A stretch of 64,000 nucleotides of DNA from Candidatus Goldiibacteriota bacterium HGW-Goldbacteria-1 (GCA_002839855.1 PGYV01000006.1:16367-80366); one strand, 5' to 3'. Shown: positions 10,474 to 55,325, numbered from the stretch's first letter. Made by a program: numbers and translations. Notes: a model not told the origin generated them from the sequence alone.

Positions 10474-10478
10474 ACGGC

Positions 10479-10583
10479 GGCTAGGCAGCTAGGCAGCTAG
10501 GCAGCTAGGCAGCTAGGCAGCTAGGCAGCAAGGCGGCAAGGCGGCAAGGCGGCAAGGCGGCAAGGCGGCAAGGCGGCAAGGCG
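10479..10583. repeat. tandem octamer microrepeats, left arm of a composite intergenic element
   Basis: (GCTAGGCA)x6 followed by (CAAGGCGG)x7. The reverse-complement arm, (GCTTCCCA)x4 + CCGCCTAGCTGCCTAGCTGCC, lies at 10871..10925. Confidence 0.85.
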
Positions 10584-10870
10584 GGCGCACCTTTTAAGGT
10601 GCGGTTGTAGCGAGCATGCGAAGCGGAAATCCCGGCAATGAAGCGAGCTTGCAATCTGAAGCGGGCGGGACAGTTGGTTGTTAATATGAAGAATATTTTA
10701 AATAGAATAGAACCAGTATAAAACGGATTAATTATATAAAAACATAATCAAAACAACGCGGGCTAAAGACCCGCGTCTACCAAGGCACAAAGAAACTTCC
10801 AACCATCCAACCATCAAGGTGTCTTAAATATATTCCGTGCTTTTATCATCTATCTCTGATATGTCTTATA

Positions 10871-10925
10871 GCTTCCCAGCTTCCCAGCTTCCCAGCTTCC
10901 CAGCCGCCTAGCTGCCTAGCTGCCG
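10871..10925. repeat. reverse-complement tandem microrepeat arm, right end of the composite intergenic element 10479..10925
   Basis: CTTCCCAG is repeated 4 times, then CCGCCTAGCTGCCTAGCTGCC. This is the reverse complement of the left-arm motif. Confidence 0.85.
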
Positions 10926-11082: not shown

Positions 11083-14000
11083 TTGAAAAAACTAACATTG
11101 CTGACTATAGCCGTTTTGTTTATAACAGTTAATATTTTTTCCGCACAAAATAATGCCATCCGCGTGGACATGGAGGGTTATAGAACCCTTGGTAATAAAT
11201 ATGTAATTCTTGTCGGGAATTCTGCTACATCATTCACCGTTAAAACTGTTTCGGGCGGTACAACTGTATTTACCGGCACTTTTTCGGCGGCTGTTGCCGA
11301 TGCCGCGTCCGGTGATTCTGTTAAAACAGGCGATTTTTCCGCGCTTACAACACCCGGCGAATACTACGTAGCGGTAACAGGGTTGGGCGAATCTTATAAC
11401 TTTAGAATATCCGATACCATTCATACTGACACTTTAACCACTCTTATGCGGGGATTTTACGGGCAGCGCTGCGGCGCATCTGTAACCTTAACTCACAGGG
11501 GAACCACTTTTACCCACGGCGCGTGCCATTTAAATGACGGAACTTACGCGGGTTCAACCGGATTAAACGGGACAAAGAATACAACCGGAGGCTGGCACGA
11601 CGCCGGCGATTACGGCAAGTACGCCTTAAACTGCGGCGTAACAAACGGCGAGCTTCTTCTTATGTACGAAAAATATTACGATGCGCTTGAACACATTAAT
11701 CTTGGGCTTCCATATTCCGGCGGCGCGCTGCCTGACGTTCTGACCGAAATTAAATACAACCTTGACTGGCATAAAAAAATGCAGCACACAAACGGCGGTG
11801 TTTTCCACAAACTTTCAAACGGCTTTCCTCAGAATATTATGCCGACGTCAGATACTGATACAAGGTATATCTTTGCAATATCTTCCGCCGCGACCGCGGA
11901 TTTTGCGGCTGTAATGGCAATTGCGGCGCGCGTTTTTGATATGTATGACGCCGCGTACGCCGCGGAATGCCTGACAGCCGCACAAAACGCGTGGGCTTTT
12001 TTACAGGCAAACCCCAATATTGTCCCGGCCGGCGGTTTTACTGACGGCAGTATGGGCGGAATTTACGGCGATACCGATGACAGTGATGAAAGGTTATGGG
12101 CGGCGGTTGAACTGTTTAACACCACAGGCGAGGCGCAGTATAATACTTATGTTGCCGCGCATTATACGGATAGAACGCTTACATTAATGTCTGACCTTGG
12201 CGATGATTGGAAAGAACTTCATCCCGTTGCTTATATGTCATATATGCAGTCCAAACAGCCATCGGTAAATACCACCGTGGTTAACGCTATGAAAACGTTA
12301 TTTCAGCCGCAGGTTAACACGTTCAGGAACAGGGTGCAGTCAACGAACGGGTATAAGTTTGTACTTAACTCCGGCGATTATTACTGGGGCTCAAACTCTG
12401 TTGCTTTAAACAGGGCGATACGGCTTGTTGCGGCATCGGAAATATTCGGAGATGATACTTATAAAGACGCCGCGGAAGAAGTGCTTCATTATATCCTTGG
12501 CAGAAACGCCATGAATAAATCTTATCTTACTTACGTCGGCGAGGTTTACACGAACCAGCCTCATCACCAGCCGTCTGCCGCGGATGGAATTACGCCGCCC
12601 TGGCCCGGGATTCTTGCCGGAGGGCCAAATGAATATTACGATACAATAGGGGCGCCGGCAAAATGTTATGTTGATGATGCAGGGAATTACACTTCCAACG
12701 AAGTGGCAATAAACTGGATGGCGGCGTACGCTTATGTGCTTGCGGCTTTTGTTCCGACGCCGGGGCCTACAAATACGCCTACCAATACCCCCACGTCTTT
12801 ATGCCACCCGCTTACATGTACTTTTACGCAGACAAGCACACCGACTGTCACTGCCACGCCGATAAATGTTTTAAGGGTAAATGTGGCGGGGGCTCAGGTA
12901 ACCACCGGCGGAAATGTCTGGCTTGCCGACAAAGCATATATAGCGGGAAGCTGGGGTTATAACACACCCGCAAATACCGGCGACCGTACCGCGCTTGGAA
13001 ATATTGTAAACAACACAACAGATGATGTTTTGTATCTTACGGAAAGATGGGGCGCGGCGCTTTCTTATACTTTTGACCTTGCAGACGGCTGGTATCTTGT
13101 CACGCTTAAATTTAATGAAATGTTTGTAAACAGCGCCAATGCCAGGCTGTTTAATATACTTCTTGAAGGGCAGGTTGTGGAATCGTCTTTTGACGTTTAT
13201 GCCGTTAATAACAGCCAGGCATACGCGGTTGACAGAAGTTATCCGGTATTGTTAACAGATGGAAAACTGAACATTGACCTTACGCAGGTAACCGAAATGT
13301 GTATTTTAAACGCGCTGCGGATAGAATCATATTACCCTCCAACCGCCACTTATACATACACTCCTTTAAACACAAATACGTTCACAAATACCGCGACAGC
13401 AACCGCTACATTTACAAATACATCCACAAGCGAATGCTATCCGCTTACATGTACGTTTACAAATACCAATACTTACACAAGCACACAAACGCCTACAAAC
13501 ACGCCTGTGCCCACTCCGATACGCGTAAACTGCGGAGGCGCGGCTTATCTTGACGGCGCGGGGAACACATGGGCTGCGGATTATGGGTTTACCGGCGGGA
13601 CTGCCACATCTGTAACTGACGCGATTGCAGGCACAACAGATGACACGCTTTATCAAAGCGAAAGGTACGGAAACCCGTCATATACTTTTACCGTTCCAAA
13701 CGGATATTATGATATTACGTTTAAGTTCGCTGAAACATGGTTCAACGCGGCAGGGGAGAGGATTTTTGACGTAAGTGTGGAGGGAGTAACTGTAATTGAC
13801 AATCTTGACTTATATGTATCAGCTCCCGGAGCAATGCGCGCGTATGATGTAATTATATCAAATGTTTTAATTACGGACGGGCAGATAAATATAACCGCTT
13901 CATCCGCGGTTGACAGCGCCAACTTCCGCGCCATTGCAATAATCCCCGCGGGCCCGGCGCCTACATTCACATATACAAATACGGTGCCTCCGACAAACAC

Positions 14001-15168
14001 ACATACGAACACAAATACCGATACTGCGACAGCCACATCCACTTTCACAAACACTTATACGGCAACAGATACCGCCACAAGCACATATACTTATACGCAT
14101 ACCAGTTCACATACCGCCACAAATACACCGGAGCCTCCCACAAATACACATACCGCAACTGATACCGCGACATATACTTATACGAATACAAATACATCCA
14201 CTTTCACATATACGCATACACATACGGCAACGCATACCAATACGGAAACCCCGACAGACACAAATACCGCAACAATTACAAACACTCCGCCGCCGGGCAG
14301 CACAAACACGCATACTTTCACAATTACATCAACTCCGTCGGATACTCATACCGCCACATATACTTATACTTACACATTTACAAATACGGCAACGCAGACC
14401 TATACCGAAGTGCCTCCGACCTTTACAGGTACTTTCACGGAAACGTTTACGTTCACATACACTTCAACTTACACGCACACGGCAACAATAACAGATACGG
14501 TTCCGCCGGGAAGCACGTCCACTAACACCCCCACGCAAACGCTGATTCCGTCAAATACCCACACGCATACGGCCACTGAAACAAGTACTTATACAAACAC
14601 TTATACCGCCACAAATACTTTTACGGAAACAAACACGGTTCCGCCGGGAAGTACAAACACTAACACTCCCACAGAAACGCTGATTCCGTCAAACACTGAT
14701 ACCGCTACACATACACACACGCATACGTTTACAAATACATACACGGCTACAAGTACACCTGTTATTCCGACTGATACGCATACGGCAACGGCAACGGTTC
14801 CGGCGCCCACAGCCACGATTACAAATACTCCCTCTTCCATTATCGCGGAAGACGCAAAACAGATAATTTCTGAAGTTATGATTTATCCAAATCCTTATAA
14901 TTCTAAAATTTCTCCGGCAGGACCCTTTGTCATATTTAAACTTGCGAAGAATGCCGCAGGAGTGTCGCTTAGAATATATTCATCTTCATTCAGGCTTGTG
15001 AAAAATATTGAATTTGAAGGAGTATTTACGGCAGGGTTGAACAGGGCGCATACCCGCGCAGAAGATTTTAAAAATCTTTCAAACGGCACTTATTATTTTG
15101 TCCTGACAGCGGACGGTGCATCAGGAAAAGCCAAAAGCAAAGCGGATAAGATGATTGTCTTAAAATAG
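11083..15168 (+). CDS. secreted GH9 endoglucanase with two malectin-like CBMs, a ~300-aa alternating-Thr region and C-terminal sorting domain
   Basis: A TTG start follows RBS AAGGAGAAA. GGWHDAGDYGKY marks the GH9 domain. Two INCGG / NCGGAAY...ERWG domains resembling malectin/CBM57 lie at about 12850-13320 and 13516-13945. A (T-X)n region lies at 13950-14830. The C-terminal domain lies at 14850-15165. Confidence 0.85.
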   Translation: MKKLTLLTIAVLFITVNIFSAQNNAIRVDMEGYRTLGNKYVILVGNSATSFTVKTVSGGTTVFTGTFSAAVADAASGDSVKTGDFSALTTPGEYYVAVTGLGESYNFRISDTIHTDTLTTLMRGFYGQRCGASVTLTHRGTTFTHGACHLNDGTYAGSTGLNGTKNTTGGWHDAGDYGKYALNCGVTNGELLLMYEKYYDALEHINLGLPYSGGALPDVLTEIKYNLDWHKKMQHTNGGVFHKLSNGFPQNIMPTSDTDTRYIFAISSAATADFAAVMAIAARVFDMYDAAYAAECLTAAQNAWAFLQANPNIVPAGGFTDGSMGGIYGDTDDSDERLWAAVELFNTTGEAQYNTYVAAHYTDRTLTLMSDLGDDWKELHPVAYMSYMQSKQPSVNTTVVNAMKTLFQPQVNTFRNRVQSTNGYKFVLNSGDYYWGSNSVALNRAIRLVAASEIFGDDTYKDAAEEVLHYILGRNAMNKSYLTYVGEVYTNQPHHQPSAADGITPPWPGILAGGPNEYYDTIGAPAKCYVDDAGNYTSNEVAINWMAAYAYVLAAFVPTPGPTNTPTNTPTSLCHPLTCTFTQTSTPTVTATPINVLRVNVAGAQVTTGGNVWLADKAYIAGSWGYNTPANTGDRTALGNIVNNTTDDVLYLTERWGAALSYTFDLADGWYLVTLKFNEMFVNSANARLFNILLEGQVVESSFDVYAVNNSQAYAVDRSYPVLLTDGKLNIDLTQVTEMCILNALRIESYYPPTATYTYTPLNTNTFTNTATATATFTNTSTSECYPLTCTFTNTNTYTSTQTPTNTPVPTPIRVNCGGAAYLDGAGNTWAADYGFTGGTATSVTDAIAGTTDDTLYQSERYGNPSYTFTVPNGYYDITFKFAETWFNAAGERIFDVSVEGVTVIDNLDLYVSAPGAMRAYDVIISNVLITDGQINITASSAVDSANFRAIAIIPAGPAPTFTYTNTVPPTNTHTNTNTDTATATSTFTNTYTATDTATSTYTYTHTSSHTATNTPEPPTNTHTATDTATYTYTNTNTSTFTYTHTHTATHTNTETPTDTNTATITNTPPPGSTNTHTFTITSTPSDTHTATYTYTYTFTNTATQTYTEVPPTFTGTFTETFTFTYTSTYTHTATITDTVPPGSTSTNTPTQTLIPSNTHTHTATETSTYTNTYTATNTFTETNTVPPGSTNTNTPTETLIPSNTDTATHTHTHTFTNTYTATSTPVIPTDTHTATATVPAPTATITNTPSSIIAEDAKQIISEVMIYPNPYNSKISPAGPFVIFKLAKNAAGVSLRIYSSSFRLVKNIEFEGVFTAGLNRAHTRAEDFKNLSNGTYYFVLTADGASGKAKSKADKMIVLK

Positions 15169-15485
15169 CAGCTAGGCAGCTCAGCAGCTTAGAAGCTCAG
15201 TTTAGATCTGGTAGGCGCACCCTTCAGGGTGCGGTTATAGCAAGCCTGCGAAGCGGAAATCCCGGCAATGAAGCGAGCTTGCGAGTGAAAGCAGGCGGGA
15301 CAGTTGAACTTGGTTGTAAACAAAACGACTTCTGCCTCTGTTATAACGACGTTATTACTATGCGTACGAAACAAAAAAAATCGCAACAATTAAATCTAAA
15401 CAGTACGGGATAAAAACCCACATCTACCAATACCAAACCTTCAGAGCCGCCAAGCCGCTTAGCTGCCCAGCTGCTTAGCTGCAGT
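15169..15485. repeat. composite palindromic intergenic element with microrepeat arms, hairpin A and a conserved 70-nt module
   Basis: Left arm GCAGCTAGGCAGCTCAGCAGCTTAGAAGCTCAG. Hairpin A lies at 15209-15240. The module GCGAAGCGGAAATCCCGGCAATGAAGCGAGCTTGC lies at 15249-15283. Right arm GCCGCCAAGCCGCTTAGCTGCCCAGCTGCTTAGCTGCAG. Confidence 0.8.
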
Positions 15486-15609: not shown

Positions 15610-18546
15610 ATGAAAAAATCTTTAAACGCCTTATTAATGGTGTTTATCTTTATTCCTTTATTATATGCCACGCCTGTATCTGAAAACGGCGAGCTTAAGC
15701 TTGTCGGAAATCAGCTTTCCAATTCATGCGGAAATCCGGTCCAATTAAAAGGAATGTCCAGCATGGGGCTTCAGTGGTACGGCGTTGGTCAGTGTCTGGA
15801 TACCGCCACTATGGATTATATGGTTAATACAATTGGAATTGATGTATTCAGGGCTGCTATGTATGTTGATGAAGGCGGATACCTGACTGATAAAACGAAA
15901 TACTCTAATATGGTAAATACAATTGTTGACTGGTGCGAAGCACGGGGTATTTATGTGATAATTGACTGGCATATGCTTACGCCGGGCGATCCTAATGCTC
16001 ATATTAATGAGGCCAAAACTTTTTTCGCGGAAATGTCATTAAGGCATAAAGATAAAAAGCACGTAATATATGAAATCTGCAACGAACCTAACGGCGTTTC
16101 GTGGTCAACTGTTCAGACTTACGCGAATATCATAATCCCCATAATCCGCGCAAATGACCCTGACACCATAATAATAGTAGGTACGCCTAACTGGTCACAG
16201 CTTGGTACTGATGTTGCAAATAATAAATTAAACTATACAAATATTATGTACACGTTTCATTTCTATGCCGCATCACATTCCACCGGCTTAGTTACGCCCT
16301 TTACCGATAAACTTCCAATTTTCTGTACAGAGTGGGGCATAAGCGATGCAAGCGGAAACGGCGCAATTGACACTGCAAACGCCACGAATTTTTTAAACAT
16401 ATTTGACGGAGCCAATACAGGCGGTCAGAAAATAAGCTGGGCAGGGTGGTCGTGGTGTGATAAAAACGAATCTTCTGCGTATCTGCAGGCAGGGTCGTGC
16501 CTCAGCAACCCGCCAAGGTTTACAACCGCGGGTAACTATATAATAGGCAAGATTCAGACGAATCCGAATAACTGGACAGCGTGTAACGCGCAGACTCCCA
16601 CTTTTACAAAAACAATAACACCGGGCGGGCCTACGTTTACACCCACCAGAACGCCCACTCCTTTTGCAAGTTTGTTGGTCAACTGTGCCGGGCCGCAGTA
16701 TACAAATGCGGAAGGCGTATGGCAGGCTGATAAAGCTTACGCGGCAGGAAGCTGGGGATATGTGGGTGGTACGGTTGTAAGCAGGGGAAGTGTGGCAATT
16801 GGCAATACCACAGATGACACGCTGTATCAGACTGAACGTTATGCGGACCCGGTGGAATACAGGTTTGATATTCCTAACGGGACATATTCGGTTACGTTTA
16901 AAATGTGTGAATCTTATTGGGGAAACACGACAGGCGGAAACGGAAGCAGGATATTTGACATAGTAGCGGAAAACAATACTGTAGTAAACAACCTTGATTT
17001 GTACGCGGTGGCGGGATATAACAATGCTTATGACGTAACGGTCAATATTACCGTAAATGACGGGCAGCTTAATATATCAATGCCTGCTGATGTTGATAAC
17101 GGGCTTATTAACGCGATAAAAATTGTAAACGCGGCTTCTGTGACAAACACTCCCACAAGGACCAATACGTTTACCGCCACAAGGACGCATACAAATACGT
17201 TTACAAAAACATTCACGCACACTTTTACAAGGACGAATACTTTTACCGCGACAAGGACAAACACCTTTACCGCGACAATTACTCATACTTTTACAGCCAC
17301 AAGGACAAATACGCCCGTACCTCCCACAAACACGTTTACAAATACGGCTACAAGGACATATACGCCGGTACCTCCCACAAACACATTTACAAATACGGCG
17401 ACAAGGACATATACGCCGGTACCTCCCACAAACACATTTACAAATACGGCTACAAGGACATATACTCCTGTGCCGCCAACAAGCACATTTACTGACACAG
17501 CCACAAAGACAAATACGCCCGTTCCGCCTACAAACACGTTTACTAAAACGGCTACAAATACTGCAACAAACACATTTACAAATACGGCAACTAACACAGC
17601 CACAAAAACAAACACGCCTGTGCCGCCGACAAACACATTCACGAACACTGCCACAAAGACAAACACGCCGACTGTTACGGAAACACCTATCCCGGGCAGC
17701 ACTGATACGTTTACACATACAATAACAAATACATTTACAAAAACAAATACGTTTACAAATACGCATACTGCAACTGATACATTTACGCCTGTTCCGCCCA
17801 CAAGTACGTTCACAAACACGGCGACAAATACATTTACAAATTCCAATACCGCCACCAATACAAATACCGCCACAATTACAAACACGCCTCCGCCGGGAAG
17901 CACAAATACGTTTACGCACACAATAACAAATACATTTATAAATACGGCCACAAATACGTTCACGTCAGTGCCGCCGACAGCCACGCATACATATACAAGG
18001 ACGTTTGTAAATACGGCCACAAACACTTTCACGTCAGTGCCGCCGACAGCCACGCATACATTTACAAGGACGTTTATAAATACGGCCACAAATACGTTCA
18101 CGTCAGTGCCGCCGACAGCCACGCATACGTTTACCGTTTCTTATACTGAAACAGCCGTTGTTTTTACCCCCACATATACCTTTACGGCAACCGTAACTGT
18201 TGTGTTTACAGGTACGCCAACGCCGGTTGCTACTGAAGGCAAAAAAGCCGAAATTAAAGATGTTGATGTTTATCCGGTTCCTTTTGGAAAAAAAGGGAAC
18301 GTATATTTTGAATTTACCCTTACCAAAAGCATGAACTCCGTTGAGCTGAAGATTTATTCTTCGGGTTACAGGCTGTTAAAGAGAGTTGATGTTTCTTCGG
18401 CATGCGTTCCCGGAAGAAAGAAGAGCGCAATAGCGGCAGGGGAATTTGTAAATCTTGCAAATGGGACGTATTATTTTGTACTGGAAGGTAATAGCGCGGA
18501 CGGATATGTGAGAAGCAGGACAGAGAAGATGATAATTTTAAAATAG
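15610..18546 (+). CDS. secreted GH5 endoglucanase with a malectin-like CBM, a ~360-aa T-X/PVPP repeat region and C-terminal sorting domain
   Basis: RBS AGGAG precedes the ATG at 15610. GH5 hallmarks are [11 protein letters not shown] and FCTEWG. The malectin-like domain reads [10 protein letters not shown]...TERYADP. The repeats [17 protein letters not shown] occur 3 times. The C-terminal domain lies at 18240-18543. Confidence 0.85.
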
Positions 18547-18707
18547 AGGCTTGGATGCTTTGAGGCTTGGATGCTTTGAGGCTTGGAAAGCTTGGCAGCT
18601 CGGCTTGAGTCTTTTGTCATGGTAGGCGCACCCTTTAGGGTGCGGCAGTCAGCTGTGGTTAGGCATTTGTTGTCCTGGTAGACGCGGGTCTTTAGCCCGC
18701 GGCAGTT
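18547..18707. repeat. intergenic microrepeat arm plus hairpin families A and B
   Basis: (GAGGCTTGGATGCTT)x2.5 lies at 18547-18610. Hairpin A GGTAGGCGCACCCTTTAGGGTGCGGCAGT lies at 18621-18650. Hairpin B GGTAGACGCGGGTCTTTAGCCCGCGGCAGTT lies at 18676-18707. Confidence 0.85.
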
Positions 18708-18849
18708 GGATTTGTTTTAAAACAGAACACGCGCATAATACCGAGCAATGTAATAATAGGCTCGGTATTAAAAGGCGGGGCTACCAGGGCTTAATACATA
18801 AAAAATTATATTTAAGTTATTACAAATGACAGAACAGGAGAATGATTTT

Positions 18850-21800
18850 ATGAAAAAAGGGATACTGAAATTACTTACAGGGCTTTTAATATTAATCCCG
18901 TCGTTTATATTCTCTGCGGATTCTCAGGTTAGGGTAAATTCTGTGGGATTTCTTCCTGCAAATGACAAAGGGGCGTCGGTCTCTACGGCGGTTTCGGGCT
19001 TCAACAAACGCTGTTGTTTTTTCTTCAACCGCCGCTAATATCACCGGGCCGGTTAATGCAACTGATTCCAATGAAACTGTTTATAAACTTAATTTTACCT
19101 CTTTTACAACACCCGGCACCTATTATGTTGATGTGACCGGCGTCGGCAGGTCGGTTAATTTTACTATAGCGGATAATGTATATAATGATGCTTATATTAC
19201 TTCTTATAAATCCATGTATTACTGGCGCTGCGGAATGGCTGTCAGCGCTGTTACAAACGGGCAGACTTTCGGGCACGGCGCGTGCCATACAAATGACGCG
19301 AATCAGAACTACATAGGATTTGGAAGCAATATTAGGGACGGAAAAGGCGGCTGGCATGATGCCGGAGATTTTAACAAATATATAGTTAACGCAGGCATAA
19401 CAATGGGTATGTTCTTCATGGCGTGGGAACATTACGGAAGCGTACTGAACAATATCCCGCTTACATACATGCCGAATACAGTTGCAGGTTATCCGGAGTA
19501 TAATGTATCGGCGTATCCTGATTTTCTGAAAGAATTAAGGTGGGAAATGGACTGGGTTTTAAAAATGCAGTATCCGGACGGTTCCGGTAAAGTTTCCCAT
19601 AAATTAAGCACCCTGAATTTCGGCGGTTTTATAATGCCGGAAACAGAAACCGCAACCCGCTATTATGTTGACTGGGGTTCTGCGGCTACCGCTGATTTTG
19701 TGGCGATGTGCGCAATGGCTGCCAGAATTTTCTACCCGTATGACCCTGTGTACGCGCAGAAATGCCTTGACGCGGCATGGGTAAGTTATAATTTTCTGCG
19801 CACAAATACGGCGAATAAAAACCCGGATCAGTCCGCATTTACAACCGGAGGATATGGGACAACAGACAGCGACGACAGGCTATGGGCTGCAGCTGAAATG
19901 TGGGCCACGACAGGTGATGCCAATGCAAAGACAGACCTTGATAACAGGGCAAATGCTTATTCCGATAAAACGGATGAGGATTTTGACTGGGGCAACGTAA
20001 AAAATCTGGGCATGTACACGTATTTGATGTGCACAAGGACAGGCAAGAACACAGCTATTGTAAATGATATACAGGCTGATTTGATTGCCGATGCAAACAC
20101 TATAGTTACAAAGAAAAATAATCACGCGTATTCAAGGCCTTTGGGCACAAATTTTTACTGGGGCTGCAATGGTTCGGTAGCAAGGCAGACAATGCTGCTT
20201 CAGATTGCCAATATGGTGTCGCCCAACGCTAACTATGTTAATACAGCGCTTGATTCGCTTGGATATCTTCTTGGAAGAAACCCTTTCAGGCGTTCATATG
20301 TAACGGGAATCGGGACAAGCCCTCCGATGTACCCGCATGACAGGACGTCCGGCGCGGATGGTATAACAAATCCTGTGCCGGGATATCTTGTAGGCGGTTC
20401 TAACGGAACCAACAGCGGCGACCCCGCTTTAACCGCAATGCCGGCAGGCCTTGGTGCCGCTATGTACTGGACAGATAATCAGGATTCATATGCCTCAAAT
20501 GAAATTGCTATAAACTGGCAGGGAGCGCTTGTTTACGCGCTTGCGGGTTTTTGTAAAAATCCGTCAGTACCCACATTCACGCCCACTAATACAAATACGC
20601 CCGACGGCCCCACATATACTTTCACAAATACGGCTACGCAGACAAATACGTACACGCCGTCGCATACATTCACGGTTACACCCACTGTTGTATTACCTGT
20701 GGCAATTTGTTCCGGGCCATCTTTGATAATTGACGGAAGCCTGGATGAAGCTTTCTGGCAGGCAGGGGAATGGACTGAGGTTTTAAAAGTGGTTACGGGT
20801 ACAATGCCTGCGCCCGTATCCGCGCGTTATAAAGTGCGGTATGATGATTATGGTTTTACCCTTGGCGTGCAGATTACTGACAGCGCGCTTTACAATGATT
20901 CCGGCACAGAATGGTATAACGACGATTCGGTTGAACTTTACCTTGATGTTAATAATGATAAAAGCACAACATACGACGCTGATGATTATCAGTTCAGCGT
21001 GCGCTACGTCGAAGGTATAATAAGGGAACAAAGCGGTGATCCCGGAAACGCTTACGCTGCTTACGGCTATATTGTGGGAGGTTACACGGTTGAAATTGAT
21101 GTGCCATGGGCCGATTTGGGAGTTACCCCTTTTGAAGGCATGGTAATGGGTTTTGACGTAGGCGTAAATTATGACCAGGACGGCGATGAAAGGGAAGGTG
21201 TTTTGATGTGGAACGGCACAAGCACCAACTGGCAGAACCCTTCAAATTTCGGCGAAGTAACCCTTGGCGCGCCGTGCGGTGCCGCGGAAACGCCCACGCA
21301 CACTTATACCAACACATCCACTTACACGCATACTGCGTCATACACATCAACCTTTACAAACACAGCAACAGTGCCTACAAACACGTTTACAAGCACAGCA
21401 ACAGTGCCTACAAACACGTTTACAAACACAGCAACAGTGCCTACAAACACGTTTACAAGCACAGCAACTGCACCTACATATACTTTTACGAGCACAGCAA
21501 CTGCACCTGCAAATACGTTTACGAGCACAGCAACTGCACCTGCAAATACGTTTACGAGCACAGACGTTTACAAATACGGCAACTGTTCCGACAAATACTT
21601 TCACTAACACGGCAACTGTACCGACAAATACATTTACTAATACTGCAACAGTCCCTACAAATACGTTTACAAGTACTGTAACAGTCCCTACAAATACGTT
21701 TACAAGTACAGTAACAGTATCTACAAATACATTTACAAGCACAGCAACAGCGCCGACAAATACTTTCACTCAAACTCCAACAATTCCAACGCCTACATAT

Positions 21801-22139
21801 ACTGTAACCCCTGTGATACAGGAAGGGGATAAACAGAAGATTACGGATGTAATGGTTTTCCCGCACCCATATAACGCTTCCAAAAATCCTTACGCCGGCA
21901 TAAAGTTTAACCTTTCCAAAAGCGCGGCTGTGGTAAAGATAAGATTATATTCATCAGCTTTCAGGTTGTTGGAAGAATCGGACATAGCAAAAAACTGCCA
22001 CCCGGGCAGTAATATCGGCGCGATAAGCGGAAGAAGGCTGTCAACAATGTCCAACGGGACGTATTATTTTGTCCTGATCTCGGAAGATAATGCAACAGAG
22101 GTCAGAAGTAAAGTGGATAAGATGATAATAATGAAGTAA
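18850..22139 (+). pseudogene. GH9 endoglucanase - CBM9-like - T-X repeat - C-terminal-domain gene interrupted by two frameshifts
   Basis: Three consecutive ORFs in different frames together give a complete protein. The pieces are a signal peptide + Ig-like N-terminus (frame 1), a GH9 domain with GGWHDAGDFNKY plus a CBM9-like domain IDGSLDEAFW (frame 2), and TFTNTATVPTN repeats plus the C-terminal domain (frame 3). The shifts fall at about 18990-19000 and at 21563/21564, where one 33-nt repeat unit is truncated to 16 nt. Confidence 0.7.
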
Positions 22140-22140
22140 T

Positions 22141-22355
22141 GGTTAGAATGAAAACCTTATCCCATAACCTGTTATCCCATATCCCATAAATAAAGGCATA
22201 CATCCGGCCGCGTCTTTACCTATGGGATAGGTGAATGTTGGTATTATCAAATTTCGAATCTCGAATTTCGATTCTCGATACACTTCCGTCCCTCACGCTT
22301 TAAACCGTCCCTCATGTTTTCCTAGCTGCCTAGCTGCCTAGCTGCCTAGCCGCTT
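22141..22355. repeat. intergenic repeat cluster
   Basis: TTATCCCATA / TATGGGATA inverted pairs. An (AATTTCGA/ATCTCGA) tandem at 22249-22280. A CCGTCCCTC module. (CCTAGCTG)x4 at 22322-22354. Confidence 0.75.
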
Positions 22356-22448: not shown

Positions 22449-25400
22449 ATGACACTTAAACGGGTTTTAGCCACGGTATTTCTTCTTTCCATATTAAACT
22501 CTTACATTATTAGTGCGCCGATAACAGAGCAGATTATCGTTGACCAGATAGGGTACAGGACAACTGCCGACAAATGGTTTATGATTGCGGATCCAAGGAC
22601 GGGTTATAACGCAGCTGTTACATACGTTCCGGGTGCAAGCGTGGAATTAAGGCGCGCATCTGATGATATATCGGTTATGACTATCCCCGTTACCGCATGG
22701 AATGCCGGCGCGGAACATTCCCAGTCCGGCGATGTGGTATGGCAGGGAAATTTTTCCGCATATACAACGCCCGGTACTTATTACATATTTGACACCACAA
22801 ACAATACTCAGTCATTTGATTTTGATATTGCGGATGATACGTATAACACAATTCTTGAAAGCTCTGTTAAATCCTATTATTACCAGCGGTGCGGTACGGC
22901 AATTACCGGCGCTCACGGCGGTACGTGGACACATGCCGCTTGCCATACAACCACTCAACAGACTGCGCGCCTTTACGACGCATCACTTGGCGGCGATCAG
23001 GGAGCGGCAACCGCACGCGACATTACCGGCGGATGGCACGATGCCGGCGATTACAGAAAGTACACATCTTGGATGGCTGTTATAGTATGGGACTTGGCTT
23101 ATGCTTACGAATGGAACCCGGACGCATTTTCGGATGCTACCGGAATTCCGGAATCTAACAATGGCGTACCGGATATATTAGATGAAATAAAATGGGAACT
23201 TGACTGGCTTTTGAGAATGCAGGGTACAAACGGCGCGCTTTATTCAGGCGCATTTGTCGTGACAGGAATAAACGGAACAGGAAACGGTATCGGAGACCCG
23301 TCAACAGAGAACAGGCAGTATTTTTATGCCAACTATTCAACAGCGGCCACAGGTTCCGGCTGTTCGTCATTCGCAATAGGCGCTCGCCTTTTTGCGCCTT
23401 ATGAAGCAGCTTATCCGGGTTATTCCGCCGCGCTTCAAATCGCCGCCGAAAACGCGTGGGCTTATCTTCAGGCAAATCCTTCGAATATTACTTACAATCA
23501 CACCGGGTTTGATAACGCCAACGCCAATAAAGGGGTTGATGCTGACAGGGGGCACAGGATAATGTCGGCAGCGGAACTATACAGGCTGACCGGAGATACA
23601 GATTATAGAACTTATATTGACGATCACTACGATGACCCGCCTTCTACCGGAGTGCATAATCCGATTACAAGCGGATATTTTGAAACAAGCGGTTCTTATG
23701 AAATTCAAAGGGGATTGATTTCTTACTGCCTGGTGCCGGGCGCCACGTCATCAGTTGTAACCGCGGTAAAAAATTCAATCAATCAGGGTATACAGAACCA
23801 GGCTTATGGCCAGCGCAATAACGACCCATATAAGTCTTATACTTGGGATGGCCATCACTGTTGGGGTTCAAACGGAATCAAATCTGAATGGGGCAATCTT
23901 TGCGTCTTTGGTAATAAGTTAAATGTTAACGCCGGGCTTTCTGCGGCATATTTAAAAACAGGCGAAGAGTATCTTCATTACATTCACGGGCGCAACCCTA
24001 ACGCGTTTAATTACATTACACAGTCTCAGCTTTACGGCGCGGATAAGCCGATAAAGCAGATATATCACGGCTGGTTTCACCACGGCACGGTTTGGGATAT
24101 AAATCCAGCGCCCGGAATATTATCCGGCGGGCCTAACTGGTACTTTGTTCCTGACGCTTCGTATATAGGCACAATAGAACCGCCGCAAAATCAGCCGCCC
24201 ATGAAATCATATAAGGATTGGAACACAAGCTGGCCGGAAAATTCATGGGAAGTAACGGAAAATTCAACGGGCTACCAGTCGCGATACACTCTGCTTGCTT
24301 CGTTTTTCGCCTCTGCCGCGGGCCCGACAGCCACGCCCACATATACTTTTACCTATACCGATACAATAACACCCGGCGGGCCTACGTTTACTTTTACGCA
24401 CACGCCCACTGAAACATTTACAAACAGCCACACTTCCACACAGACGCCCACGCCTGTAAGCGTGCTTTTTAATACCTGCGATACCATAAATTACAACGGC
24501 GCCTGGACAGAAACCGCTTCTACAATATCCATCAACACAATTGAAACAGCGGCCATTACGCAGGGGACAGGCGCGCTTCAGATTGATGTTGAAACAATTG
24601 CGGCATGGCAGGACGGAATAGCATCACTTGGCGGTTTTGTTCCGTCAGACTGGAGCGGTATTGCACGCATTGAAATGGATGTTTATATCGCGCCCGGCGA
24701 AGAACCTTGGGGCGCGGCAGATACTTATCATCAGCTTGTATTAGTTGTGGATTCAAATGATACTTCAAAATGGTACAGGACTATTACAGCAAATCAGAAT
24801 ATTACAACAGGCATGAACCACCTGGTGTTTACAATAAACTGGGCACTTGATTTGGACCCTGACCCGATACTGCCCATAGACGCAATTAGCAATCTTACAT
24901 TTATTATAAATTCAGAGACAGGAAATACAGGGACGTTATATTTTGACAATATGATCCTTTATTCAACAGCATCCCCGGAGACACCAACCGCCACGATAAC
25001 ACTTACCCCGGTAATTTCCGCGACGGCAACAGCGACAGTTACAATGACAGAAGTATTATCCGCCACGGCGACATTAACAGCAACTGCAACAGTTACAATG
25101 ACAGAGGTGTTTTCGTTAACTATAACCAAGACGCCTACCGCGACAGTAACTGTAACACAGGATATATCATCCACATCGACGCCGACGGCAACGGCAACAG
25201 GAACTTCGACGGTGGAGGTCTCCGCTACATCAACACAGACAGCAACCCCCACGGCAACGCATACGGAAGAATTATCCGCGACAGTTACAAATACAATCAC
25301 TGTAACAATAACAATTACTTCGTCCTTAACTTTTACGGCAACGCCGACCATAACGCTGACGCCGGTTATTTCCGCTACAAATACGGTTACAAGGACAATT

Positions 25401-25871: not shown

Positions 25872-26130
25872 ACGCTTGGATGGTTAGATGGTTAGAGGCT
25901 TGGTTAATTCTTATGTCTTGGTAGACGCGGGTCTTTAGCCCGCGTTGTTTTGATTTGATTATGTAAAAACGGACCAACTGCCGCGGGCTAAAGACCCGCG
26001 TCTACCAAGACTAAAACAAACCGACCCTCTGCCCATCCAACCTTCCGACCTTCAGTTTTTACTTCCGTCCCTTCGTTCCTCATGTTTTTCCTAGCTGCCT
26101 AGCTACTTAGCTGCCAAGCTGCCGCCTTTT
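25871..26130. repeat. composite palindromic intergenic element
   Basis: Left arm GCTTGGATGGTTAGATGGTTAGAGGCTTGG. Hairpin B at 25919-25948 and its inverted copy at 25981-26008. Right arm CCATCCAACCTTCCGACC...CTAGCTGCCTAGCTACTTAGCTGCC. Confidence 0.8.
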
Positions 26131-26216: not shown

Positions 26217-29200
26217 TTGCTGCGCAGAACGCTTTTTACAGTGATGGTTTTGCTTGTTTTTATTACCGGCCTGCGCGCTTCTTCTATAATACCAACCCAG
26301 GCGTGGTCGCGCGATGTGGGCGCTTCCGGCTATACCGACGGCGCGCCTATAGGCGGCTTTGGCGCAGGAACAATTACATGGAAAAATAACGGGGATTTTT
26401 ACCTTTCACGCCTTGACATTGGCGCCGGCGATGAAACGGGAACTTTTACCGCGGCCAACACTAACTGCAAATTCTTTATGTATCAGAAACCGGCGTCAGG
26501 TGCGGCTACAGTACAGCGCCTTGATTCTGCTAACTTAGGCACAGGGCAGGCTGTTTACAATTCGCTTTTTCCTTTTGCGTGGGTCAACTATTCCGGCAGC
26601 AGGTTTAATGTAAAAGCAAAAGTGACGCAATACTCTCCGCTTATTCCCGAAGATTATCAGCGCGTAAGTTATCCTGTGGGCGTTTATGAATGGGAGCTTA
26701 CAAACCCCACAACCCAGAACTATGACGCGGCAATAATGTTAACGTGGGAAAATCCCTATGGTTCTTCGGCTTCGCTTGTAACGGACGGAAATTATACCGG
26801 CCTTGTTTTAAACAAAGCAGGCACAGGCACGCCAACGCTTGAAACACAGGGTGAGTTCTGCCTTGCGTCTTTATCATCGGCGAACGTTACAGTCACAAGA
26901 ATGTCAGCGGCAAACAGGGCCGCCCTTGAAACTGATTTTTCCACGGACGGCGCGCTTTCAAATACAGTCGGCAGCAACACAATAGGCGCGGTTGCTTTTA
27001 AGGTCACCCTTGCGCCGGGTCAGACAGTAAGGATTCCAATAATATTATCGTGGGACATTCCAATAACACAGTCGCAGTATAACGCCAAGTGGTACAGAAA
27101 ATATACGCAGCACTTTAACCGCCTTGGGACAAATTCGTGGGCAATAGCGCGTGAAGCGCTTGCTGACAGGTCTGTGTGGGAACAGAAACTTGATGAATGG
27201 ATTCACAGGATAACCGATAACCCCAATTACCCCGAATGGCTTAAATCCATGCTGTTAAATGAAATGTATATTTATTTTACCGCAGGCACATACTGGGAAG
27301 CGGGCGCTGCTTCAGGGCAGGCGGACAACCCTTCGGAAAATATGTTTTCGCATCTGGAATCATATATTTATGATTTTTACGGCACGTCAGACGTAAGGTT
27401 TTACGGTTCATGGGCTTTGTTCATGAACTGGCCGGAAATTGACAAGCAGTGCATAAAACAATTTTCAGACTCTGTTTACAACAACCGCTCTGACAGGCCC
27501 GCGGGATTAGGGACAACCGCGCACGATATAGGTTCAAGGGCCGATGTCTTTACACGCTGGAACGCTTACGTGTACAGGGATTCCACAAACTGGAAAGATT
27601 TAAATTCCAAACTTGTGCTTATGGTTTACCGCGACTGGCACTTAACAGGCAGGACAGATTCGGCTTTTCTTGATTACTGCTGGCAGCCGTGCAAAATAGC
27701 AATGGAAAAAACCGCAACGCAGGACGCGGACGGCGACGGGCTGCCGGATTCCAACGGTATAGACCAGACTTATGATGACATGGATTTAACAGGCGACACT
27801 TCATACTGCGGCGGGCTGTATCTTGCGTCATTGCTTGCGGCAAAAGAAATGGCGCTGGCAAAGGGCGAAACCGCGCTTGCGCAGACGTATCAGGACAGGT
27901 TTGATTTCGCGCAGCCCAACTTTGAATCACAGCTGTGGACGGGGCAATATTACAGGATTGATACTGACAGCCATGATCCAACCAGGATAATGTCAGACCA
28001 GCTGTGCGGTCAGTGGTATAACAAAGCGCTTGGGCTTCCCGGAATAGTGTCAGACGCCAATGCGGTTTCTTCTTTTCAGAAAATATACGATAATAATTTT
28101 GCCAAATTCGGGAACGGCACGCACGGTGTAATTAACGTAATGAACGCGAACGGTACAATAGACACAACTTCAAGCCAGACAGAAGAATGCTGGGTTGGCA
28201 CTTCGTGGGGCGTTGCCGCGGGAATGATTCATCAGGGAATGGAAGCGCAGGCTGACGATATAGGCCAGTCGCTTTTAAACACAATCTGGAATACCGGGCA
28301 GTACTGGTTTAGGACACCCGAAGCGTTCCGCGTTAACCTTACAATACCAAGGGCGTTTTATTATATGAGGGCAACAGCGGTGTGGGCTGTTAAACACGCG
28401 TATGATTCCGTACATCCCGTGCCCACTTATACGCCTTCGCCCACTGCCACGAATACCAATACCTGGGACCCCGCGTATCCAACATATACTTTTACCAATA
28501 CAGCAACGGCAACCAATACAAGTACTTATACCCATACAGCCACAGTAACGCCTACATTTGCCGACATCAGGGTAAACTGCGGCGGGGCGGCACACAATGA
28601 CGGAACGCATATATGGGCGGCGGATTATGGTTACACCGCGGGTACGGCGGCAGGGCCTTCGGGTGCGGTTGCGGGCGCGCCTGCAGGGCAGGGAACGCTT
28701 TATCAGACCGAAAGATGGGGAATGTCCGCGTACACTTTTAATAACATTCCTTTTGGCACTTATGATATAACTTTAAAATTTGCGGAGACGTATTCGGGCG
28801 CTTATTCTGTGGGTGCAAGGGTATTTGATGTATTTATAGAAGGCACACGCGTACTTGATGATTTTGATATTTTTGCCGAAGCCGGCGCAAGCACGGCGCT
28901 GGATAAAGTGTTTAGCGCCGTTCAGGTTTCTGACGGAGTCTTAAATATTACTTTTTCGGCATCTGTTGACAACGCTAACATTACCGCCATTGAAGTTGTG
29001 CTTGTTTCGCAGATGCCCACTTCAACGCACACTTCAACCGCCACGCGCACGCCCACCGCCACTTCTACTTATACAGCCACGGACACACAGACACCTGACC
29101 CGTTATGGACAAAGACTTTTACCTATACATATACGGACACGGCAACAAACACGGCAACTTATACTTATACAAATACATATACAATCACAAACACGCCTAC

Positions 29201-30932: not shown

Positions 30933-31420
30933 AGGCTTGGACGCTTAGATGCTTAGATGCTTGGCAACATAGAGTCCGCGCGTTTTTGCTTTTGCTCTTG
31001 TAGGGATAGCGCTCCCGCGCTGTCCGGCTCTTTTTGTTTGGTATTAAATGTTTGGTAGGCGCACCTTTTAAGGTGCGGTAGTTGATTTTTTCTTTATGTT
31101 CTGGATCTTTTGTCCTGGTAGACGCGGGTCTTTAGCCCGCGGCAGTTATCTTGTCTTGGAACTTGTAGGGACGGCGTTCCCTCGCTGTCCGGTTCTTTTG
31201 TTGTCTGGTATTAAATGTTTGGTAGGCGCACCTTTTAAGGTGCGGCAGTTGATTTTAATCTGTGAATTAAATCAAAACAACGCGCCCTGAAAGGACGCGG
31301 CTACCACTGCCAAAACAAACTGACCCGCCGCCCCTCGCGTTTTAAACCGTCCCTCCGTGCATCTGTCCCTCCGTCCCTCGTGTTTTCCCAAGCCTCTAAC
31401 CATCCAAGCTTCCAAGCCTC
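30933..31420. repeat. composite palindromic intergenic element containing a duplicated ~95-nt unit
   Basis: Arms GAGGCTTGGACGCTTAGATGCTTAGATGCTTGG (30933-30969) and CCAAGCCTCTAACCATCCAAGCTTCCAAGCCTC (31385-31420). Hairpin A at 31054-31083 and 31220-31251. Hairpin B at 31116-31148. The unit CTTGTAGGGA..CGCTGTCCGG.TCTTTTGTT..GGTATTAAATGTTTGGTAGGCGCACC occurs twice. Confidence 0.8.
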
Positions 31421-40019: not shown

Positions 40020-40255
40020 ATTGTTATAGTTTCGTCACCCGCATTGTCCGGCTCTTTTGTTTGGTAGGCGCACCTTTTAAGGTGCGGCAGTTTATCTTGT
40101 CTTTGAACTTGTATTAATATCACGAATGCCTGCGATGTCTCAACATTCACGCTATCCGGCTCTGTTTGCTCTTGTATCTTCCAATCATCCAACCCTCCGA
40201 CCTTCTGACCCTCAGTTTTCCTTCCGTCCCTCCGCACATCCGTCCCTCTGATCTA
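40020..40255. repeat. intergenic repeat cluster
   Basis: Hairpin A at 40062-40092. The CCAACCCTCCGACC / CCGTCCCTCCG module at 40181-40250. Confidence 0.75.
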
Positions 40256-40419
40256 TTTTTGCACAAAAATAACCACAACAAAAACGCTTTTTGTTTGTCT
40301 AAATATCATTGAAACTAAAGCGTTTTTGTTAAATCGGGAATAAAGCAATTGACGGGGGATTAATTAAAAGTTATTATTTAAATGAATTAAGGGAATCAAC
40401 AAATATACGGGAGAAATTA

Positions 40420-45271: not shown

Positions 45272-45850
45272 GCAGCTTGGCAGCTAGGCGGCTAAGCAGC
45301 TAGGCTAAAAAAAAATAAGGTTTGGTAGGCGCACCCTTCAGGGTGCGGCAGTTGGTCTTGTTTTATTTCAATCTAAACACCGCACCCTAAAGGGTGCGGC
45401 TACCAAACCAAAGCAAATAACGGATTGTATATAAAAATGTTTCAGATGTGGTAGACGCGGGTCTTTATCCCGCGGCAGTTAATGTGTAAATCCCGGTAAT
45501 TTCTTCGCTATAGCTTAATTGCTTAACCCGCTTATGCTTAATATTTATAATGCCATTTGTGACTATAATCACTGTTTTTTCATCTTTATTAAGTATAATT
45601 GTTATAGATGTAGGGGCGGTGTTTTAGGCAGAGATGGTGAGGTAAAAGCGGCGGATGAAAATCCGCCGCTTTTATTTTTAGCAAATATGTTTTTTAAAGT
45701 AGAGACGCAACATGTTGCGTCTCTACTTTAAAATATAAAACCCGCACCCTAAAGGGTACGCCTACCAGATCCATGCCAAACCTTCCGTCCCTCCGGCCAT
45801 CGTGTTTTTATGCCAAGCCTCCAACCATCCAAGCCTCTAAGCCTCCGCCT
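45272..45850. repeat. composite palindromic intergenic element
   Basis: Arm (GCAGCTWGGC)n at 45272-45305. Hairpin A at 45323-54 and its inverted copy at 45379-45408. Hairpin B at 45448-80. A terminator-like hairpin at 45645-80. Palindrome C at 45697-45730. Inverted hairpin A at 45741-68. Right arm CCGTCCCTCC...CCAAGCCTCCAACCATCCAAGCCTCTAAGCCTCC at 45781-45850. Confidence 0.8.
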
Positions 45851-47487: not shown

Positions 47488-47692
47488 TTTGTGTACTTGT
47501 TTTCTTTTTCTAATGTAGAGACGCAACATGTTGCGTCTCGCTTTTATGTGTGAATTTAAATTCTTGGTAGACACGGGTCTTTAGCCCGCGGCAGTAGATT
47601 TGATTCTGTTTATATCAGAAATCGCTCCTACGCTGTCAGCGTTTTTACAATGATTTGATAAGGGTAGTTGTTTAATTTTTCGCCAAAAATAG

Positions 47693-48133
47693 GTGGAGTT
47701 TATGAATAATAAAAATTCTTTAATTGTTTTCATTTCTTTTGTGTTTTGTTCTGTGTTTAGTGTCGTGTTTTTTTATCTTGTTAAAGGGGGATATGATTCA
47801 AACTCGGCGATTCGTTCATACTTTCTACTTGGCCAGTTGATGTGCGTCCTGATGATTGTCTATGCTGATGTTACGTATTTCTCGAATATTGACAAAGACA
47901 ATATGTTTAGATTTTTATTTCATCAAGTTATTATTTCTGTTACGTCGTTAATGAATTTAGTAATCATTCAACATTATATGGGAGTAATACTATTGTTCAA
48001 ACTACCGGTCGGATTTTTAATAATGATTAACATACTTATATTAACAACTGTTTTAGCTGCTATTTTATTTTCTCTTGAAAAAATATTCTTAAAATTTTGG
48101 GTTAAAGATAAAAGTGACACAATTCATTATTAA
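47693..48133 (+). CDS. hypothetical small membrane protein
   Basis: Four hydrophobic helices. No recognisable motif. Confidence 0.35.
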   Translation: MEFMNNKNSLIVFISFVFCSVFSVVFFYLVKGGYDSNSAIRSYFLLGQLMCVLMIVYADVTYFSNIDKDNMFRFLFHQVIISVTSLMNLVIIQHYMGVILLFKLPVGFLIMINILILTTVLAAILFSLEKIFLKFWVKDKSDTIHY

Positions 48134-48439
48134 AAAAAACACTGTTAGATCCTAGTTAATGCCTTGATGATTTAAATTCAACTACCGCGGGCTGAAGACC
48201 CGCGTCTACCAGGACGAAACAACTACTCGAAAACCACGCGCCCTGCCGACTCCTCCATAGCAAATGACATTTCCGCGACGGCAGGAAAAGGACGCGGCTA
48301 CCGGAATTTAATACAAAATAAAAAACAACATAATACTTTTTATCCTGTTTAGGTGTTAAATAGGTTGACTAATACCCAAAAAATTATTAAAATATGGGGT
48401 ATTCGGGCTTAATTCTGTCTATGGAAAGGGATTTTTATA

Positions 48440-52090: not shown

Positions 52091-52311
52091 ACAACAAACT
52101 ACAAAATCTAGCGGGATAAAGACCCGCGACTATCAACGCTCTTATGTTTGACCGAGCTGCCGTTCTTCGTTTTTCCCAAGCATCTAACCATCCAATCTTC
52201 CAAGCATCCATATTGCATCTACTTTCAAAATCCTATTGACAACAAATTGCTAATCTGACAAAATAGTGATAATGGCATAGTAGTTCCACCAAACAAAACA
52301 GGAGAAACACA

Positions 52312-55070: not shown

Positions 55071-55074
55071 GAAC

Positions 55075-55325
55075 AGGTTACAAGTAACAGGTTACAAGTA
55101 ACAGGTTACAGGTTACAGGTGACAGGTGACAAGTTACAGGTGACAGGTGACAAGTTACAGGTGATACGGCACAGGTTTGGGTTTGGTAGGCGCACCCTTT
55201 AGGGTGCGGCAGTTGAATGGCTTAGATTTGGTAGACGCGGGTCTTTAGCCCGCGGCAGTTGAAGTTGGTTATCAGCTGTAACTTGTAAGCTGTAACTTGT
55301 AACTTGTAAGTTGTTACTTGTTACA
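55075..55325. repeat. composite palindromic intergenic element
   Basis: Left arm (CAGGTTACAAGTAA / CAGGTGACAAGTTA)n at 55075-55165. Hairpin A at 55184-55215. Hairpin B at 55228-55260. Right arm (CTGTAACTTGTAAG)n at 55270-55325 in reverse complement. Confidence 0.85.

Follow-up and report, generated by a model that had tools for sequence, protein, structure and literature searches.

The repeated intergenic hairpins described here are very probably GTAG-tagged REPs of a REP-RAYT ("REPtron") system in an uncultured, cellulolytic, Goldbacteria-like lineage, and they are thereby a new example of an already known kind of element, the classical REPs. The window, by which we mean the whole 64-kb stretch of DNA that was analysed, holds about 25 copies of a repeat unit of 32-33 nt, composed of TGGTAG, a base N, a 7-bp stem of CGC... 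type with a TTTA-type loop, and G-CAGTTG. In related contigs and MAGs, genes for RAYT transposases are bracketed by inverted copies of the same hairpins.

Anatomy and location of the repeat units

A loose pattern (TGGTAGNCGC(N13)GCG, at most two mismatches) gave 25 matches in the window, as compared with 3.75 +/- 1.89 (maximum 9) in a control of 100 dinucleotide-preserving shuffles. Individual copies were listed from every TGGTAG on both strands together with a hairpin-aware scan (Table 1). The listing bore out the repeated hairpins of the earlier note at every position given there, its counts of at least nine copies each of types A and B (10 and 11 were found) and the use of both orientations by both types. 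It also added copies beyond those already known, namely a type C copy at 31306 (-), long-loop copies at 18786 (-) and 48303 (-), and minus-strand copies at 10782 and 15429. The two stem families that had been proposed, A and B, both stand, a third family, C, having been overlooked.

The aligned copies are made up of the TGGTAG head, one variable base, the 7-bp stem, which begins CGC and finishes GCG, a T-rich loop (TTTA or CTTTA), one further base and the CAGTTG tail. Alignment of all copies upholds the flanks claimed to be shared by the two stems: TGGTAG shows 90-100% conservation (alignments A1 and A2), the T before GGTAG is present in 217 of 227 classified copies among the matches listed, and GCAGTTG is the majority tail, with a minority of copies carrying TTGTTTTGATTT in its place. 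At least three stem families, A, B and C, are distinguished by their four inner stem pairs. The structure and covariation check that had been advised supports the hairpin, with 95.9% of stem cells paired (28 distinct copies) and compensatory changes between families in five of the seven pairs; the B and C stems include a T.G pair that is present on the top strand only. Single units fold as ssDNA at -7 to -11 kcal/mol (z -3 to -4) with GTAG unpaired in the minimum-energy folds, and the units are thus stem-loop palindromes within the 20-50 nt of GTAG-tagged REPs and carry a conserved, unpaired GTAG at the 5' foot. An outer G.U helix of UGGUAG with CAGUUG, although 83% "paired", showed zero compensatory change, and because its arms do not covary it is not claimed here.

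All window ORFs, of any size, lie on the plus strand, and by the ORF map intergenic DNA amounts to ~6.4 kb of 64 kb (~10%). Every copy falls within this fraction, as the earlier note had stated, and both strands are used; across 83 contiguous kb, all 24-26 copies lie between ORFs. Copies in the window are confined to 10.5-55.3 kb, where intergenic regions are long, and beyond its edges there is one C copy 3.1 kb to the left and none in the 10 kb to the right, which places the 24 good copies of the 83 kb within a 45-kb stretch plus one outlier. Most plus-strand copies are found 50-120 nt downstream of the stop codons of plus-strand genes. The A copy at 18620 and the B copy at 18676 form a head-to-tail pair, and the B 33-mer of 18676..18708 was found identical in MAG JAKQNO01 and beside RAYT genes. 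The reported pairing of A with B was confirmed for 18620/18676, 31053/31116 and 55184/55229, with gaps of 13-31 nt. Three inverted doublets in the window fold at -22 to -38 kcal/mol; direct pairs and singletons are more numerous.

Table 1. Positions of REP units, arrays and accompanying modules (window coordinates unless a locus is named)
Feature	Position	Strand	Detail
Type A, all copies (n = 10)	10585 (headless), 15209, 18620, 31053, 31220, 40062, 45323, 55184	+	
	45405, 45767	-	
Type B, all copies (n = 11)	18676, 25919, 31116, 45449, 47565, 55229	+	
	10782, 26007, 48211, 52135, 15429 (degenerate)	-	
REP A without TGGTAG head	10585..10676	+	abuts 8-mer array; ~65 nt insert between 3' stem and CAGTTG
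REP B	10750..10782	-	tail variant TTGTTTTGATT
REP A	15209..15306	+	~65 nt insert before CAGTTG, as in 10585 copy
Degenerate REP B	15397..15429	-	TGGTAGATGTGGGTTTTTATCCCGTA
REP A TGGTAGGCGCACCCTTTAGGGTGCGGCAGTCA	18620..18651	+	TGGTAG-G-CGCACCC-TTTA-GGGTGCG-G-CAGTCA; ssDNA hairpin -10.7 kcal/mol, z -4.3, GTAG unpaired
REP B TGGTAGACGCGGGTCTTTAGCCCGCGGCAGTTG	18676..18708	+	TGGTAG-A-CGCGGGT-CTTTA-GCCCGCG-G-CAGTTG; ssDNA fold -9.3 kcal/mol, z -3.1
Long-loop REP variant (TGGTAG-CCCCGCC...)	18730..18786	-	nested AATACCGAGC...GCTCGGTATT hairpin; resembling variant in Goldbacteria MAG locus L247
Inverted doublet B(+)/B(-)	25919..26007	.	GTAG outside, REPIN-like, 89 nt; one ssDNA hairpin -38.5 kcal/mol, z -11.5
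REP A	31053..31084	+	stem variant CGCACCT/AGGTGCG (compensatory change)
REP B	31116..31148	+	
Inverted heterodimer A(+)/C(-)	31220..31306	.	ssDNA fold -21.6 kcal/mol, z -4.6
Type C unit of this heterodimer	31306	-	TGGTAG-C-CGCGTCC-TTTCA-GGGCGCG-TTGTTTT
REP A	40062..40093	+	
Inverted doublet A(+)/A(-)	45323..45405	.	GTAG outside; ssDNA fold -32.9 kcal/mol, z -10.7
REP B	45449..45481	+	loop variant CTTTAT
REP A	45736..45767	-	CGTACCC variant
REP B	47565..47597	+	ACACGGG variant; left flank of insert absent from syntenic relative
REP B	48179..48211	-	right flank of insert absent from syntenic relative
Long-loop REP C variant	48237..48303	-	CGGTAG-CCGCGTCC...GGGCGCG; similar variant in L106
REP B	52103..52135	-	degenerate head TGATAG
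Head-to-tail pair, A then B	55184..55261	+	enclosed by inverted 7-mer arrays 55073-55164 / 55277-55321; whole region one hairpin, z -10.3
G-rich 8-mer arrays	10476-10584, 15167-15200, 18546-18610, 25872-25905, 30930-30962, 45272-45305		
C-rich 8-mer arrays	10798-10924, 15445-15482, 22321-22350, 26021-26123, 31347-31417, 45813-45846, 52176-52210		
7-mer arrays	55073-55164, 55277-55321		
~65 nt module	10605-10670, 15235-15300; L247 2300-2375; L060 6555-6630; L106 6060-6130		
CCGTCCCTCCGTSCATCYGTCCCTC module	31347-31379, 40225-40260, 45785-45810, 26060-26090; L019 3325-3345; L106 7070-7100		
CTTGTAGGGAYRGCGYTCCC.CGCTGTCCGGYTCTTTTGTT module	30995-31040, 31163-31205, 40030-40060; L019 3420-3450		
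GTAGAGACGCAACATGTTGCGTCTC(TAC) palindrome	45699-45726, 47516-47539, 51888-51911		also in L106 and L019
	52017-52041	+	
	52061-52085	-	
Thr-X repeat linkers	13360-14800, 17130-18160, 21270-21840, 24300-24450, 28470-30600, 42540-44840		

RAYT genes and the hairpins that bracket them

The GTAG head led us to suspect classical REPs, and E. coli K-12 rayT was therefore used as the query against all ORFs of the fetched loci. One match, in locus L238, was an ORF of 154 aa that contains the HuH motif PDHMHMIL and a catalytic-Tyr motif, scores 35.5 bits against Pfam Y1_Tnp (cutoff 23) and has E. coli TnpA_REP, 4ER8, as its best PDB match (E 1.7e-6). A B(+) unit starts 64 nt upstream of this gene and a B(-) unit starts 70 nt past its end. 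The RAYT proteins of related contigs and MAGs are Y1/HuH transposases of 152-157 aa that have the Y1 HuH fold, the HuH motif, the catalytic Tyr and the RAYT-type motifs; H59, H61, Y115, W94, Q95 and R104 (E. coli RayT numbering) are invariant in the alignment, identity to E. coli RayT is only 20-27%, and many homologs carry the JGI name "REP element-mobilizing transposase RayT".

Nine loci encode a B-type RAYT (L238, L245, L246, L253, L254 and L256-L259, the eight beyond L238 belonging to its 90% cluster), and in all of them a B(+) unit has its start 63-64 nt upstream of the gene and a B(-) unit its start 15-70 nt past the gene's end, with arrays of one to five B copies upstream. A further three loci encode an A-type RAYT flanked by A REPs, namely L247 (Candidatus Goldbacteria MAG GCA_016937715.1), L251 and, as a partial gene, L160. 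In these nine B-type and three A-type loci a RAYT gene is bracketed by its own inverted REPs, the arrangement of a REPtron, which favours the REP-associated tyrosine transposase among the recognition proteins suggested in the earlier note. The idea of one common protein for both stems is not borne out, as B units flank one RAYT type and A units flank a paralog 64% identical to it. Stems A and B each have their own paralogous RAYT, and the flanks that they have in common point to membership of one RAYT clade rather than to recognition by a single protein. More distant RAYTs, L252 (51% identity) and L248 (45% identity), are flanked by GGTAG-CCGCxxxx-TTTA hairpins with other stems (GGTAG-CCGCAACC, GGTAG-CCGCGGGC and GGTAG-CCGCAGGA, with TTTA-type loops). 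The hairpins beside these distant RAYTs keep the GGTAG head and the TTTA loop, so the head, stem base and loop appear to belong to the whole RAYT clade, and the inner stem appears to track the individual RAYT.

The RAYT search that had been recommended was thus successful in related contigs and MAGs, but not closer to the window: Pfam scans revealed no RAYT among 28 window ORFs, and neither phmmer with E. coli RayT nor tblastn with five RAYTs detected one in the window or 10 kb to each side. Among the B-type RAYT cluster members looked up in search of the window organism's own RAYT, none came from samples 3300038334 or ERZ27239242, and no RAYT flanked by type C hairpins was found in the loci examined. 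Two ORFs bracketed by inverted REPs were considered as RAYTs and rejected, one in the window (47693-48133, 146 aa; a predicted membrane protein with no Pfam hit) and one in L032 (449-1183, 244 aa; no Pfam hit). In contigs of several samples, the B-type RAYT often has gpmI upstream and/or msrAB (SelR/PMSR) downstream, a conserved context that fits vertical inheritance. The tandem B REPs upstream of the gene (47-nt spacing) vary among near-identical contigs from different samples, with three copies in L256, three in L257 and five in L258; the L256 contig starts 27 nt upstream of its first tandem B copy. The repeats also break metagenome assemblies, as the RAYT contigs L246 and L251 end in REPs.

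By analogy with the TnpA_REP biochemistry of E. coli, Stenotrophomonas and Marinomonas (PMC8266576, PMC3479197), the RAYT would bind the top strand of a REP folded as an ssDNA hairpin, read GTAG at its 5' foot, cut at a nearby CT or CA via the catalytic tyrosine and then rejoin the strands. We propose the conserved CA, one base past the stem in G-CAGTTG, as a candidate cleavage site, and the top-strand-only T.G pairs of the B and C stems are the sole hint of strand-specific RAYT action. Acting in trans, the RAYT may spread REPs into intergenic DNA, where they would pile up as singletons, head-to-tail arrays and inverted doublets able to fold as one long hairpin in a REPIN-like manner. Most plus-strand copies, being just past stop codons, would enter 3' UTRs on transcription, and a secondary host role such as mRNA 3'-end protection or insulation of neighbouring genes is plausible.

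The position of plus-strand copies behind stop codons and the T.G pairs that work on the top strand only would equally suit host RNA elements, that is, terminators, mRNA 3'-end stabilisers or insulators between GH genes that are kept by selection and whose link to RAYT is incidental, but ~40% of the copies are antisense to the only transcribed strand. The terminator scan flags only minus-strand copies, those with TTGTTT tails, and passes over the plus-strand GCAGTTG-tailed copies, which are not terminator-like. T-rich tails and very stable hairpins across whole intergenic regions also speak for RNA elements, yet canonical terminators stand elsewhere in those spacers (e.g. 45645-45680 and 51922-51955), a conserved unpaired GTAG is needless for terminators, and the bracketing of RAYT genes is left unexplained. 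As the primary explanation a host RNA element is therefore improbable, and it may well apply as a secondary function.

Operator or nucleoid-protein sites co-regulating the cellulase gene cluster are highly improbable: although in 83 kb the copies are concentrated in the GH9/GH5/GH116 cluster (10-55 kb) and LacI, MarR and IclR regulators are encoded nearby, this concentration follows the length of the intergenic spacers, most copies are downstream of genes and not at promoters, and unrelated genes are flanked as well, in the window MurJ, the S49 peptidase and an OmpA-like gene and in further contigs gpmI/msrAB, rsmB and nuo genes. Least credible of all are MITEs from a DDE-type insertion sequence or a small structured RNA family, since the units, short, repeated and partly palindromic as they are and with inverted doublets that resemble terminal inverted repeats, are individually asymmetric (GTAG head, CAGTTG tail) and occur on both strands, the doublets inspected (25919/26007 and 45323/45405) have flanks that extend the palindrome (GTCT...AGAC and GGTT...AACC) in place of the direct target-site duplication that would accompany the terminal inverted repeats of a MITE, viral contigs gave zero matches to the units, and Rfam 15 gave no match at gathering score in the window and none on the hairpins at E<=1, so that the structured RNAs proposed earlier find no support. 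Integron attC sites were considered for their GTTRRRY-like tails and rejected, given misfitting tails, large genes and no sign of an integrase. tRNA genes are absent from the window.

Turnover among relatives and comparison with known systems

The window encodes GH9, GH5 and GH116 glycoside hydrolases with Thr-rich linkers, T9SS-related domains (CHU_C, PorV), efflux pumps and housekeeping proteins, and its TGT is 72% identical to the TGT of two Candidatus Goldbacteria MAGs and ~62% identical outside that group. The Candidatus Goldbacteria phylum already includes a cellulose degrader (PMC7031533), in the text of which the words palindrome, transposase and intergenic are absent and "repeat" occurs in the methods only. 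The GH genes contain long Thr-X linkers, (ACNNNN)n with a 6-nt period, together with 33-, 51- and 69-nt tandem repeats, which dominate the direct-repeat output. Within a region of 33-nt tandem repeats, a GH9/CBM9 ORF (18962-21607) and a 291-aa ORF read in a different frame (21264-22139) overlap, which suggests a frameshift, either real or from repeat assembly.

Most of the at least 120 matches of the genome-collection scan, whose pattern was loose, are chance or a conserved Hymenobacter locus, and the useful ones are seven JAKQNO01 loci; this MAG carries identical A, B and C units and otherwise has no nucleotide similarity to the window. The metagenome scan, which specified the flanks only, gave at least 120 loci, mostly from digester and activated-sludge samples, some of which represent one organism sampled twice, and the hairpin tallies are to be read as counts and not as independent events. 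Related contigs, picked for carrying a copy, hold 239 GGTAG-hairpins in 804 kb among the matches listed (114 B, 74 A, 39 C and 12 other). Neighbouring pairs, again among the matches listed, have GTAG outside in 28 cases, mostly 66-123 nt apart, and inside in 3, and 53 are direct.

Gain or loss of copies is indicated by the comparison with a syntenic relative, L265, whose TGT is 86% identical and whose genes share 65-70% DNA identity. Gene order is kept from MurJ to beyond dxs, but no unit is present in 21 kb of the relative and none of nine window copies is found at the orthologous intergenic regions, so that, since the two diverged, one lineage has acquired units or the other has lost them. 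In the relative the IclR-GH5 spacer spans 96 nt and contains an ordinary terminator, as against 298 nt with arrays, A and B in the window, and the MurJ-S49 spacer is <100 nt versus ~950 nt. In this ~950 nt segment (47488-48439), B(+) and B(-) enclose a predicted membrane ORF of 146 aa, and a C variant is present as well; missing from L265 between MurJ and the S49 peptidase gene, the segment is a REP-flanked insertion or deletion. Separately, in L106 (6150-6940) two direct copies of a ~60 nt block, each a B REP plus a GAGACGC palindrome, flank a ~650 nt insert with two small minus-strand ORFs (87 and 92 aa), which resembles a small cassette between REP copies.

In the GTAG super-family (Di Nocera et al. 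2013, PMC3733652) the stems have 6-9 bp and often contain G.T pairs, several families occur per genome, each with its own REPtrons, inverted dimers preferentially place GTAG outside, and the elements are located downstream of ORFs. The units described here share with it the short palindrome with an unpaired GTAG at one end, the extragenic location, mostly downstream of ORFs, the G.T stem pairs, the coexistence of families, the family-specific RAYT bracketed by its own REPs and the GTAG-outside dimers, and their RAYTs keep the HuH and Tyr catalytic residues of TnpA_REP/RAYT (Corneloup et al. 2021, PMC8266576; 4ER8, PMC3479197). They differ from classical GTAG families in the head extended to TGGTAG, the G-CAGTTG tail common to three families and the adjoining 8-mer arrays. 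The host lineage here is Goldbacteria-like, and the survey names eight phyla (PMC3733652). Members of different families abundantly lie head to tail (53 direct versus 31 inverted neighbours among the matches listed), an arrangement seldom seen in most GTAG families described so far (PMC3733652).

Pseudomonas REPINs, inverted REPs with a short spacer that form one long hairpin (Bertels and Rainey 2011, PMC3116915), are matched by 25919-26007 and 45323-45405, and their mobilisation in trans by one single-copy RAYT has been proposed (PMC3116915); here, however, only a minority of copies are in doublets, and heterodimers (A/C, B/A) are common. Intergenic REP clusters, alternating or tandem and with other short motifs between, recall E. 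coli BIMEs, but the stems here are short and near-perfect in contrast to the long, bulged (group 2) stems of E. coli, and the accompanying motifs are period-8 tandem arrays and not BIME linker motifs. Bertels et al. reportedly sorted RAYTs into five groups in 2017. In form, the short near-perfect palindromes are like group 3 REPs (PMC8266576), the RAYT comparison being with E. coli RayT (group 2) only. The Y1 HuH enzyme with ssDNA hairpins is also shared with IS200/IS605, and the tetranucleotide 5' of the hairpin occupies the guide-sequence position of those elements; in contrast to them, the gene is not repeated together with the hairpins, which far outnumber it, and in several contigs the chromosomal surroundings of the B-type gene (gpmI, msrAB) are conserved.

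These findings extend REP-RAYT biology, experimentally characterised mainly in Gammaproteobacteria, to an uncultured cellulolytic candidate phylum. The three REP families, with identical head, stem base, loop and tail and only four differing inner stem pairs, constitute a natural co-evolution experiment, and since two of them are matched to 64%-identical paralogous RAYTs, the specificity determinants are directly testable by stem and protein swaps. The repeats are also worth masking when small RNAs or terminators are annotated in these genomes.

Tandem arrays and long spacer palindromes

The spacers that carry the REPs are mosaics, which recur in the related MAG and in metagenome loci. G-rich tandem 8-mers (GCAGCTAG, GCTTGGAT, GGCGGCAA), or 7-mers ACAGGTT at 55073, stand right after stop codons, and reverse complements of the arrays lie before the next gene. 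Over all loci, and among the matches listed, 18% of REPs have a period-8 array at most 100 nt 5' of the head; 3' of the REPs the proportion is 6.8%, and the background level is 1.7%. Periods of 6, 7, 9 and 10 did not exceed 3%, and in 30 of 40 cases the G-rich strand of the array is the REP top strand. As the arrays form inverted outer arms, whole spacers fold as one hairpin (z -10.3 and -11.3).

It is conceivable, though we regard it as rather doubtful, that the REPs are the core of a larger composite in which fixed-orientation G-rich period-8 arrays 5' of the heads build a locus-specific long palindrome for each GH-cluster spacer. The layout would then run from an array after the stop codon through REPs in mid-spacer to an inverted array before the next promoter. 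Provided that the RAYT makes or mobilises the arrays along with the REPs, or that selection maintains them as pairing arms that insulate or process neighbouring transcripts, this would represent a new REP-associated architecture with host function. A few species are known to have REP dimers within longer palindromes, without tandem 8-mer arms (PMC3733652 section 7). As in Anabaena variabilis GTAG-15, Halothiobacillus CGTC-1 (PMC3733652 section 7) and Neisseria mosaic regions, REPs and other repeats together form a palindrome as long as the intergenic region; unlike in those mosaics, the outer arms here are tandem 8-mers (7-mers once) whose sequence differs by intergenic region.

Several other repeats were observed in the same spacers. 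A fourth family is the palindrome GTAGAGACGCAACATGTTGCGTCTC(TAC), which starts with GTAG (on both strands in the full copy, 45699-45726) and is usually followed by a T-run, so that the terminator scan flags it; the copy at 52017 shows compensatory stem changes, and the family may be another GTAG-tagged REP doubling as a terminator. A module of ~65 nt (TTGKAGCGAGCMTGCG..GCGGAAATCCC...GGGA), conserved in several genomes, lies between the type A 3' stem and the CAGTTG tail. A C-rich module (CCGTCCCTCCGTSCATCYGTCCCTC) is located upstream of genes, adjoining C-rich 8-mer arrays, in the window and the related MAG, and the module CTTGTAGGGAYRGCGYTCCC.CGCTGTCCGGYTCTTTTGTT recurs just 5' of some type A REPs.
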